From the NCBI GenBank assembly GCA_963782055.1, contig CAWAIF010000003.1, positions 3,136,001 to 3,200,000 on the forward strand: 64,000 nucleotides of DNA. The letters are read 5' to 3'. Both the position numbers and the translations under genes were made by a program. The number at the start of each line of letters is the position of its first letter. Position 1 is the first letter of the stretch. The notes beneath the pieces were generated by a model that had not been told where the DNA came from, did not search any database, and saw only the letters and a list, made by a program, of their open reading frames with translations. Positions 33,049 through 35,896 of this stretch are shown one piece after another. Source of the DNA: an uncultured delta proteobacterium. Lineage in GTDB: Bacteria > Myxococcota_A > Polyangia > Polyangiales > Polyangiaceae.

Positions 33049-33262
33049 GGCCGTCGTGCCAGCGTGATGGCGATGGAGGGTTGCCACCATCGGGCCGACG
33101 CTCGCGCAGCGCCACGATGCCATCCCGAAGCGGGCGGTTCTCCCGTCCAGGGATCGGACCGGCGCGTCCTCTCGTCGTTCCGGACGCCGCCCCTCGCCCG
33201 ACAAGGACGAAGGGAGAACACGTGCCCCCTTCTCGCTCGGTCGCGCATAGGATTTCCCCATG

Positions 33263-35299
33263 GTGCGCCGTGAAGAAGCAGGTCGTCCGTCGGGCATGCC
33301 CGACGAACGACCTGCCTCAAGCTGCGCTTCTCCAGCGGGTGAGAGTCCCGCACCGGTAAGCGTCGGAGCGCCGGGTAGCAGGCCCCAGCCGAGCGGGAGA
33401 GATCCCGTCGGCCGAGCGGGGCGTCGAAAGGGTCCACGGACCGAGCGAGCACGCGGGCCGCAACATGAAGTGAAGCTTGCAGCCTCGTCAGATCTACAAA
33501 CCGGGAGCCGAGCCGATCATGTCGCGGCGAAGGCAATATCGGCGGCGCCAGATCCGAAACGCGCCGTCGGTCCCGGCGGGGTAGGGAGCGCAGCACGCGT
33601 GCAAGGAGGAGTGCGGAACTCGGGAGGCCCGTCTGCGTCGCCCTCGTCGGGGCAAGGCGCGTCGTATAAGCCAGAGGCGAAGTCGGCCGCTGCGCAGCGG
33701 GAGTCCGAGGGGGTCACTGTACCGAAGAGCGAGGCGCGAGCTTCGCGAACGAACGCCGTGAAGAACAACGCGGCAGGAGGGAAAGACCCCTGCAGTGGTC
33801 GTGTCGGCGGAGCAGGTAAGCGCGAGGGCATGGCCGGCGAGACCGGTCCCAACCACCCCCATCGGCGACAGCCCATGGACAAAGTGCGACAACTGCAACG
33901 CCGGCTGTGTGCCGCGGCCAAGCGGCATCCGGAGCGCCGATTCCACGCGCTGTATGACCGCATCGCGAGGCGTGACGTCCTCGCGGAAGCGTGGAAGCGG
34001 GTAAGGAGGAACAAGGGAGCCGCGGGCGTCGATGCCCAGACGATCGCGGCGCTCGAGGTGTACGGAGTGGATCGACTCCTCGGAGAGATCCATGACGTGC
34101 TCCGTGCAGGCAGGTACCGGCCGGCAGCGGTGCTGCGCCGGTACATCCCGAAGGCCGATGGGAAGAAGCGGCCGCTTGGGATCCCGACGGTCCGAGACCG
34201 GGTGGTGCAGATGGCGACGAAGCTCGTGCTGGAGCCGATCTTCGAGGCGAGCTTTCGCTCGTGCTCGTACGGCTTCCGTATCGGGCGGAGCGCGACGGAC
34301 GCCCTGGAGACGCTGAGGAAGCTCGGCGCGAAGGGGTACAACCACGTGCTCGACGCCGACATCCGTGACTACTTCGGGAGCATCGATCACGACAAGCTGA
34401 TGAAGCTCGTCGAGCGGCGCATCTCGGACCGGAGGGTGCTCAAGCTGCTGCGGCAGTGGCTCACGGCGGGGGTGATGGACGAAGGCACGGTGACCAACCC
34501 CTCCAGCGGCACGCCGCAGGGCGGGGTGATCTCGCCGCTGCTCTCGAACATCTACCTCGCCGTGCTCGACGACGTGTGGACGAAGCGGTGCGCGCATCTT
34601 GGCGAGCTGGTTCGTTATGCGGACGACTTCGTCGTGATGTGCAGGACGAAGCGTGACGTCGACGAGGCCGAGCTTCGCGTGAAGCACGTGATGACGCGAC
34701 TCGGGCTCGAGCTGCACCCGGACAAGACGAGGAAGCTGGACCTCTCCTGGGGTAAGAAGGGGTTCGACTTCCTCGGCTGCCACCTGCGGAAACGCTTGAG
34801 CGGGTCCATCTGGGAGAGGTCGCGCAAACGCGTGTACTTCCTCCAGCGCTGGCCATCGGCTCGCGCGATGAAGCGGATCCGGCAGCGCGTGAGGGACCTC
34901 ACCCCGCGATCACGCTGCCACGCGGACCTGCGCGACGTCGTCGCGCAGCTCAACCCCGTGCTGCGTGGCTGGGGCGAGTACTTTCGCACCGGGAACGCCG
35001 ACGTGAAGTTCAACCGACTCGACGAGTACGTGTACGAACGGCTTCGAGCGCTGCGCCTGAAACGGGCCGGCTCGAAGCTCAAGGCCGGACAAGCCGAGCG
35101 CTGGACCCGCGACTACTTCGTCGAAGGCTTCGGGCTCCACCGCCTGCGCGGGACCATCCGCTACCCGGAGGCCGCGTAATGCCGCGTCACGAGAGACCAC
35201 CGGTAAGCCGTGTGCGGGAAATCCGCACGCACGGTTTGAGAGGGGGTCTTGACTCCAACCGCCGCCGTAGGGCGGCCAAGGTGTAAGGATCTACCAATG
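33263..35299 (+). mobile_element. group II intron
   Basis: 5' GTGCG at 33263; domain V AAGCCGTGTGCGGGAAATCCGCACGCACGGTTT (~35205-35237); domain VI ending GGATCTACCAAT(G); internal RT ORF. The 3' end is 35298 or 35299. Confidence 0.93.
33830..35179 (+). CDS. ltrA: group II intron reverse transcriptase/maturase (no endonuclease domain)
   Basis: GAAGVD, RPLGIPTVRDR, SYGFR, GTPQGGVISPLLSNIYL, RYADD, FDFLG, LNPVLRGWGEYF; alternative starts at 33875 or 33260. Confidence 0.95.
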   Translation: MAGETGPNHPHRRQPMDKVRQLQRRLCAAAKRHPERRFHALYDRIARRDVLAEAWKRVRRNKGAAGVDAQTIAALEVYGVDRLLGEIHDVLRAGRYRPAAVLRRYIPKADGKKRPLGIPTVRDRVVQMATKLVLEPIFEASFRSCSYGFRIGRSATDALETLRKLGAKGYNHVLDADIRDYFGSIDHDKLMKLVERRISDRRVLKLLRQWLTAGVMDEGTVTNPSSGTPQGGVISPLLSNIYLAVLDDVWTKRCAHLGELVRYADDFVVMCRTKRDVDEAELRVKHVMTRLGLELHPDKTRKLDLSWGKKGFDFLGCHLRKRLSGSIWERSRKRVYFLQRWPSARAMKRIRQRVRDLTPRSRCHADLRDVVAQLNPVLRGWGEYFRTGNADVKFNRLDEYVYERLRALRLKRAGSKLKAGQAERWTRDYFVEGFGLHRLRGTIRYPEAA

Positions 35300-35896
35300 C
35301 ACCTCGATGAAGAGCTGCGAGGGCTGCTGCGTGGGAACTGGACGTTCGAGACCGCGCCGCCTGCGCTGCTCGCCCTCGGGCCACCGGCGCTGGACCGCCT
35401 TCTCGACGCGCCCTCCAGCGTCTTCTTTCCGACGGACACCGAATGGCGCGACTACGGCATGTACCGGCAGCACGCGGTCGCCGCCTTCGCGAAGCGCGAC
35501 CTGGACAGTGTGCTCGCGGCGATGAAGAAGCGGAAGTGGACGGACGCCGCCATCGGGCTCTCGGGCGTCGGCCTCGTGCGTGACGCTCGCGTCGTCCCGC
35601 TGCTCGTACGTCTGGTGGCCGACCCCGAGCCCATGCGCCGACAAGAGGCTGTCGAGCTCCTCGGCGGCCAGCGCGATCCGGACGCGACCGCCGCGGTTCT
35701 TCGCGCGCTGCGAGACCGTTCGTCCAACGTTCGACGCGCGGCGGTACACGCGCTCGGCGAGATTGGGGATCCGACAACGGTGGACGCGCTGGAGGAGGCC
35801 GCCCGCCGCTGGGCCAAGTCGCCGCTCATCGAAGCGGAGGTCGCTGCGACCCTCCGCAAGGTTCGCGACGCGGATCGACCCGCCGGGACCTCGTGA
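35297..35896 (+). CDS. HEAT repeat protein (intron host gene)
   Basis: DPEPMRRQEAVELLG, DRSSNVRRAAVHALGEIG; ATG lies at the intron 3' boundary. Confidence 0.8.
   Translation: MHLDEELRGLLRGNWTFETAPPALLALGPPALDRLLDAPSSVFFPTDTEWRDYGMYRQHAVAAFAKRDLDSVLAAMKKRKWTDAAIGLSGVGLVRDARVVPLLVRLVADPEPMRRQEAVELLGGQRDPDATAAVLRALRDRSSNVRRAAVHALGEIGDPTTVDALEEAARRWAKSPLIEAEVAATLRKVRDADRPAGTS

Follow-up and report, generated by a model that had tools for sequence, protein, structure and literature searches.

The 64,000-nt window analysed here (positions 3,136,001 to 3,200,000 of contig CAWAIF010000003.1, from an uncultured delta proteobacterium of the family Polyangiaceae) holds a gene for a 199-aa HEAT-repeat protein that is interrupted, immediately after its start codon, by a group II intron of 2037 nt (33263 to 35299; GUGCG ... 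CUACCAAUG). This intron, its parts as listed below and the HEAT gene lie on the plus strand of the window. The host start codon (ATG, 33260 to 33262) would constitute a 5' exon of three nucleotides, as indicated by site counts and by the start of an orthologue, and the 3' exon (35300 to 35896) carries the HEAT gene from codon 2 onwards. Three Rfam matches, to domain I and domain V, identify the element as a group II intron, and its limits were set by these matches, by the comparison of nine copies and by tests of the boundaries. An earlier note on this DNA had proposed that the removal of 33263-35299 leaves an intact HEAT gene, and the intron-less orthologue of a congener (L087; 63% identity over residues 1-194) supports this. 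Its product begins M-N-I-D-D, compared with M-H-L-D-E in the intron-bearing gene, and because it starts at the matching Met, the ATG ahead of HEAT codon 2 is the true first codon.

Several hallmarks of group II introns are present, namely the domain V triad, the bulged A of domain VI, the exon-binding sites (EBS) of domain I, and a reverse transcriptase (RT) open reading frame (ORF) in domain IV; the names of domains and contacts (EBS, gamma, J2/3) are those in general use for these introns. A short 5'-subterminal hairpin (33275 to 33318), recognised as an inverted repeat and in the fold, has a variable length in the relatives. Downstream of it lie EBS2 (GAUC, 33491 to 33494), EBS1 (CAUG, in a hairpin loop, 33518 to 33521), EBS3 (G, 33584), and the gamma nucleotide (C of the J2/3 CGA, 33706), the predicted partner of the last intron base, G35299. 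The RT/maturase has a conserved core of 434 aa (33875 to 35179) with a YADD motif and without an endonuclease domain. It matches TIGR04416 with 411.5 bits (cut-off 300; E 2.9e-123), and in Pfam it matches RVT_1 and GIIM only, with no endonuclease family. Domain V (35205 to 35237; Rfam RF00029 and fold) holds the AGC triad at 35206-35208. In domain VI (35242 to 35295), defined by pair counts and folding, AGGA at 35286-35289 pairs with UCUU at 35247-35250, and the bulged A is at 35293. The intron closes with an ATG of its own (35297 to 35299), in frame with the host gene.

Nine copies of the intron exist in this genome with ~100% identity: seven are uninterrupted, one has an insertion in domain VI and one is broken. 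Their near identity implies recent mobility, and a full copy is absent from the six congeners examined, a comparison that included no genome of the same species, which suggests a recent arrival and spread. The insertion in domain VI (C3:5377627-5379142) consists of ~1.5 kb of foreign DNA, apparently a transposase-bearing element. In the broken copy (C3:2503251-2518302), ~14 kb separate the 5' part, in forward orientation, from the 3' part, which is inverted, and transposase-like ORFs lie at the breakpoints; its host gene is cut off from its promoter and left with the intron's ATG only.

The preference for start codons becomes evident when the copies are compared with their relatives, which comprise the best 80 of 577 loci from a GTDB genome scan (56-92% identity) plus the plasmid locus L081, and come from Myxococcota, Acidobacteriota, Planctomycetota, Pseudomonadota, Actinomycetota and other phyla. 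Among the nine own copies, the 5' neighbour is ATG in eight and GTG in one. When own copies and relatives are taken together, 80 5' flanks can be read, with the intron after ATG at 69, after GTG at 10 and after AGG at one, so that a start codon precedes it at 79/80 sites. This comparison with other copies, which the earlier note had put forward as a check, bears out its proposal of start-codon targeting at 9/9 own copies and at 79/80 sites overall. At the other end, all nine own copies finish in ATG, with C (8) or T (1) as the next base, and the end of domain VI is followed by ATG or GTG in 80/81 relative loci, the remaining locus being truncated; the pattern used for this end itself requires ATG or GTG, and the real test is the 80/81 loci that match it rather than the count of the motif. 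An ORF of at least 80 codons runs from the 3' ATG in 60 of the 68 loci with enough flank. Out of 63 such ORFs, 12 were picked by hand, and 10 of these match NCBIfam models from the N-terminus (DnaX, MnmE, EtfB, NadD, AroC, SmpB and others); host genes in the relatives thus include dnaX, mnmE, aroC, nadD and smpB. On these sequence counts, the start-codon pattern is far beyond chance.

The exact limits of the intron required additional evidence, because an ATG stands at both junctions and the DNA alone does not fix the cut site. At the 5' junction, AGGA (33249-33252) is followed by 7 nt, by the ATG at 33260-33262 and by GTGCG; at the 3' junction, AGGA (35286-35289) is followed by 7 nt, by the ATG at 35297-35299 and by CAC CTC. 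The positions of both junctions and this repeated arrangement, described in the earlier note, are confirmed in this copy, but the resemblance is not general, and the 5' AGGA belongs to the sequence TAGGAT. The intron begins with GTGCG at 68/83 sites, and with TCGCG, TTGCG, GTGTG or GAGCG at the remainder. A scan of all alignment columns singled out one column, 33584, which complements the base after the 3' ATG at 94% of 81 sites (32% expected) and uses all four bases to do so. When only one site per <90% cluster is retained (independent sites hereafter), 33584 complements the first base of codon 2 in 49/52, the best shuffle reaching 27. The equivalent column complements the first exon base in 4/4 outgroup introns, including Rh.sp.I1, whose boundary is curated. 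The gamma nucleotide is C in 83/83 aligned sites, and it complements the last intron base in 4/4 outgroup introns, one of which ends in G. Moreover, an AUG end places the bulged A at -7, as in 4/4 outgroup introns. From the EBS3 column, the gamma C, the bulged A at -7, and the covariation of EBS1 at -3 and -4 described below, it is well supported that the intron ends in AUG, that is, in UG opposite a gamma C and not in AY; the earlier note had already described this boundary, which puts the putative bulged A (35293) 7 nt from the end.

The terminal ATG is part of the intron: introns of identical sequence retain it where the host codon is GTG, as at L063, L064 and L070. A duplication of the start codon as target site was also considered, and was discarded by the ATG ends of the introns at GTG sites and by the orthologues of the own host gene with a GTG site, which start with GTG. 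The GTG at 33222, 38 nt above the ATG, falls out of frame as a start once the intron ends in AUG, and the G after the EBS1 stem, a candidate for EBS3, is nearly invariant and does not covary, leaving 33584 in this role. [quoted passage not shown] A Paenibacillus plasmid intron that is sister to the start-codon family (L083:930-2900) has a gamma C and ends in AG, likewise not in AY.

Six nucleotides above the HEAT start codon lies TAGGAT (33248 to 33253), a box of the form TAnnnT that is a probable -10 element of a leaderless gene. Such a box occurs 6-7 nt above the start codon at 60/73 sites (7/9 own and 53/64 relatives), and at 5 or 8 nt in eight more, compared with 638 of the 124,698 ATGs on contig C3 (0.5%); among independent sites the figure is 36/45. 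Shine-Dalgarno-like words are found in only 7/73 host flanks. In the genome as a whole, the spacing between TAnnnT and ATG peaks at 6 nt (392 ATGs, 41% of them gene-like, compared with 7% at spacings of 2-4 nt), and only 259 of 4988 gene-like starts, as chosen by a crude gene-start filter, have the box at 6-7 nt. The box is a host feature, because intron-less orthologues retain it with different letters: for four host genes, it stands at 6-7 nt in 8/13 loci and at 5 nt in one more. The orthologue search came back empty for one further host gene, and four host genes lay outside it. In Mycobacterium tuberculosis, leaderless genes are defined by a TANNNT motif above a transcription start that falls on the start codon itself (PMC3898074). 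The host genes analysed here are likely leaderless as well, given a TANNNT at the usual distance of a transcription start from the start codon and no Shine-Dalgarno sequence.

The pairing of the intron with this target can be followed by covariation. EBS1 covaries with the host flank at -3 and -4 and pairs at -4 in 42/45 independent sites, which makes C-ATG (33259 to 33262) the intron-binding site 1 (IBS1); the assignment of EBS1 and IBS1, left as a task by the earlier note, is in this way achieved. In EBS2, position 33492 is an A opposite the last T of the box in 68/68, and 33493 complements box position 5 in 30/36 independent sites, so that IBS2 corresponds to the 3' half of the TAGGAT box (within 33248 to 33253). 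The counts for EBS1, EBS2 and EBS3 (42/45, 30/36 and 49/52) were reached by 0 of 10000 shuffles, although the shuffles leave some relatedness among sites, which tells against taking this figure at its full weight. Three pairings have thus been established by covariation: that of EBS1 with the start codon and one further base, that of EBS2 with the box's 3' half, and that of EBS3 with the base at which codon 2 begins.

Recognition appears to depend on the motif and not on the gene, because one own copy is inserted at no gene but with a box, inside the terminal CATG of a 1445-bp insertion sequence (IS). Of 13 ends of this IS, a single one carries the intron, and it alone has a box at 6 nt. The IS itself has CATG at both ends and generates 10-bp target duplications; it is present at C3:4454169-4457643 and at 12 other C3 sites, which provide the 13 left ends.

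The host ATG also opens a reading frame of 639 codons (33260 to 35179), which crosses ribozyme domains I-IV and enters the RT/maturase. The frame of the host ATG is that of the RT and remains free of stops through 615 nt of ribozyme; the earlier note had noticed neither this fusion nor the -10 box. It is open from host ATG to RT in 55/71 relatives (56 when L039 is counted) with 18 different lengths, and the other two frames are closed in 71/71. Of the 15 exceptions, 10 have an RT frame that stays open over 390-588 nt upstream, which is what a single indel would produce, and five do not. No Shine-Dalgarno sequence precedes the conserved Met at 33875. From these frames it can be inferred that translation of the RT usually begins at the captured start codon. 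In six relatives (L062, L067, L079, L081, L010 and L019) the frame of the host start closes at codon 125-135 and the RT frame is open from further upstream; they share a one-base offset, possibly a frameshift signal or an internal start. The boundaries, the three short pairings and the open frame from host start to RT have thus been shown at the level of sequence comparison.

Regarding its classification, the RT is 34-40% identical to references of the g1, g2 and g3 varieties and 48-53% identical to four others. In the RT tree, the start-codon family groups with two Firmicutes introns with 100/99 support, one of which (NZ_CP020749) was typed as Unclassified in PMC8919778. The careful tree (LG+G4; 23 rows, 15 of them from the start-codon family) leaves the monophyly of the family apart from L083/L084 unsettled, and was built without a CL1 protein and without g4/g5 references (Pe.ca.I3; So.us.I2 / Ge.ur.I1 / Pe.th.I2). 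On this grouping with one such intron, the RT may belong with the "unclassified" introns, either U1 or U2. The unclassified types have been described near transcription terminators (Miura 2022, PMC8919778). The introns studied here share with them the same EBS3 position and an RT without endonuclease, but what PMC8919778 says of the sites of U1 and U2 concerns terminators, with no mention of start codons or promoters in that part of the paper. L084 follows a terminator-like hairpin, and L083 did not pass the terminator scan.

The earlier note had connected this intron with the lineage of the Azotobacter groEL intron. That clade (IIB1/CL1; Avi.groEL, EcKTE56.groEL) inserts at initiation or termination codons, and has a subdomain Ia of 300-700 nt and a CL1 RT with endonuclease (PMC12584367). 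Both groups occupy translation signals without disrupting the host protein, and insertion at initiation codons is common to the two (79/80 sites here). However, the family described here has a 434-aa RT without endonuclease and a 5' hairpin of ~45 nt; the distance from its 5' end to the domain I anchor is 21-74 nt in 63/67 relatives, and the remaining four, at 183-192, seem to stem from an anchor matched further along. In addition, it has many unrelated targets, as opposed to the fixed housekeeping targets of the clade, and differs in its -10-like determinant, its AUG end, and the fusion of host ATG and RT. The proposed link is therefore abandoned: the phylogeny of the RT suggested by the earlier note did yield a placement, beside an intron typed as Unclassified, and the defining features of the groEL clade are lacking.

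Class C (IIC) introns have attC sites or the position behind Rho-independent terminators as their targets (PMC12584367, PMC7306698). They resemble the start-codon family in their short exon pairing, in their many sites per genome, and in having a target defined by a transcription signal. In contrast, this family targets transcription units at their start and not at their end, its members interrupt genes at codon 1 and keep an EBS2-like pairing, and its RNA matches other Rfam models; the scan of the locus found no terminator upstream of the intron. A class C-like group II intron is present in the genome in three copies (C3:2272870, 5214737 and 6187065), two of them cut by the 1445-bp IS and one frameshifted. 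Class F (g2-g5) and g1 introns have an IIB-like ribozyme and an RT of ~430-440 aa without endonuclease (PMC3552965, PMC4244168, PMC3753933), and the family is like them in both respects, but its RT, with the identities to g1, g2 and g3 given above, lies outside their branches. Class F g2 was rejected because the motif is YADD and not FADD, identity is 34%, and the branch is separate from B.th.I3; the g1 and g3 varieties were rejected because the RT does not group with Rh.js.I1 / Sr.me.I2 or Ni.ha.I1. A literature search returned no paper on group II introns at leaderless starts, and overlap with Michel 2007 and Simon 2008 is possible. Judged by its sequences, the family shows a new mode of targeting among group II introns, which is real and well supported.

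Taken together, the element is probably an intact, multi-copy mobile intron placed between start codon and codon 2, which captures the host promoter and start codon for itself and for its RT. Where transcription starts, how the intron splices, how the fusion is translated and that integration uses an open complex are matters that we infer. Transcription would start at the A of the host ATG, giving a precursor pppAUG-GUGCG with a three-base 5' exon. The captured promoter would transcribe the intron, and ribosomes starting at the host ATG would read domains I-IV to produce the 639-aa RT. Splicing would join AUG to codon 2 and restore a leaderless mRNA. The endonuclease-less particle would then reverse-splice into the single-stranded non-template strand, most simply in a promoter bubble. 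The terminal AUG would remain as a spare in-frame start for the host gene, probably a weak fallback.

Several observations weigh against this proposal. The HEAT orthologue L087 is among the four of 13 loci without a box, none being found at 6-7 nt, and at the locus itself no -35/-10 promoter passes a sigma-70 scan. The pairing of EBS2 leaves the leading TA of the box unexplained. Read-through from the host ATG is absent in 15 or 16 of 71 relatives, and in five of these the frame above the RT is open for <140 nt. The own copy at the IS end is followed by an ORF of 20 codons, and another own copy has a doubtful ORF; in the relative L050, the intron (about 1922) is inserted after AGG, 6 nt below TAGAAT, and the ORF from its ATG has only 16 codons. 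Finally, 10 of 20 sequencing runs are RNA, and the contigs of the four runs examined (three RNA, one DNA) cover 33304-35300 and little else; they contain no splice or lariat joint, and, covering mainly the multi-copy intron, they decide nothing. In one RNA run (X4, record 17; window 33859-35194), a contig joins the start of domain IV to domain V, skipping 1334 nt and having 168 other letters between, possibly from an ORF-less relative.

The strongest competing explanation, which is nevertheless unlikely, differs from the preferred one in the integration step only. It holds that TA-nnn-T-N6/7-C-ATG-N is recognised simply by EBS1, EBS2, EBS3 and the RT on single strands at the replication fork, that the open complex is not used, and that the link with promoters is kept by selection, since a copy would have to lie behind a promoter and a start codon to be expressed and to spread. 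The insertion into an IS end at no gene fits this view, as do the direct pairing of EBS2 with the box and the preference of related endonuclease-less introns for the lagging strand (PMC8919778). However, the spacing between box and ATG varies (6, 7, sometimes 8 nt) and EBS2 tracks the box instead of a fixed distance, and the leading TA, although it is the most constant part of the box, stands opposite intron bases that are not complementary to it.

The proposal of the earlier note, that domain VI acts as a portable ribosome-binding site (RBS) plus ATG, so that the host gene is translated from unspliced RNA and splicing becomes optional, is improbable in this form. In its favour, UAAGGA stands 7 nt above the 3' AUG in this copy (-5.4 kcal/mol with the 16S tail of this genome), AGGA is found at that spacing in 43/80 relatives (37/69 distinct domain VI sequences), and the terminal ATG or GTG, present in the 80/81 loci already mentioned, is in frame with an ORF of at least 80 codons in 60/68. 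Nevertheless, within the basal helix of domain VI the AGGA is paired to UCUU, with compensatory changes, and the predicted probability that its G-G-A is unpaired is 0.22-0.30. Values of -5 kcal/mol or lower with the 16S tail are reached by 25/68 intron ends and 129/500 random ATG flanks, being only somewhat commoner in the former, and with Shine-Dalgarno words in 7/73 flanks the host sites generally have no RBS to rebuild. The idea of an intron-supplied replacement ATG survives, and that of a rebuilt RBS does not; AGGA may serve as a fallback RBS in some variants, but it is not the principle of the start-codon family.

Slightly less plausible still is that the 3' end rebuilds a leaderless promoter (TAnnnT-6 nt-ATG) and the host gene is transcribed from within domain VI. 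TAnnnT stands at exactly 6 nt in 30/80 relatives and 24/69 distinct ends, nAnnnT occurs in 54/69, and outward promoters have been described in IIC-attC introns (PMC3001079). On the other hand, this copy has AAGGAT, 45/69 distinct ends lack TAnnnT, and the T at -10 belongs to a conserved G-U pair of the branch helix (59/69), so that structure explains part of the match. A canonical AY end, at 35298 with ATG/G as the target or displaced by one base within the start codon (G-GUGCG ... AAU), is hardly credible: AY is the 3' consensus stated for group II introns (PMC4424553) and the two ATGs allow a one-base shift on DNA alone, but EBS3 would complement the G in only 14/52 independent sites instead of 49/52, the gamma C is invariant, the bulged A lies at -7 as in the outgroup introns (the G-ending one also having a gamma C), and the host proteins begin in frame at the ATG.

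A more extensive version of the preferred reading, in which promoter and start codon are captured together, is tentative, with somewhat less than even chances. It considers these introns an undescribed and widespread lineage of promoter parasites, which would read the melted -10 element and the start codon of leaderless genes, integrate at +3, splice with a triphosphorylated 5' exon of 3 nt, and have their RT translated from the captured start across the ribozyme. Translation and splicing would then be in competition on one RNA, and the intron would gate a large number of unrelated genes, among them essential ones.

The prevailing view of bacterial group II introns is that most of them shelter in mobile DNA or behind terminators. 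In contrast, the start-codon lineage goes to the starts of transcription and translation, with pairings that have been mapped and can be tested. How any intron colonises start codons is stated in PMC12584367 to be unknown. If the proposal is true, this family would be an example from nature of splicing with a 5' exon of 3 nt and of a ribozyme that doubles as coding sequence. It would also serve to mark the leaderless promoters of uncultured phyla, and possibly as a tool for promoter insertions that leave the protein intact.

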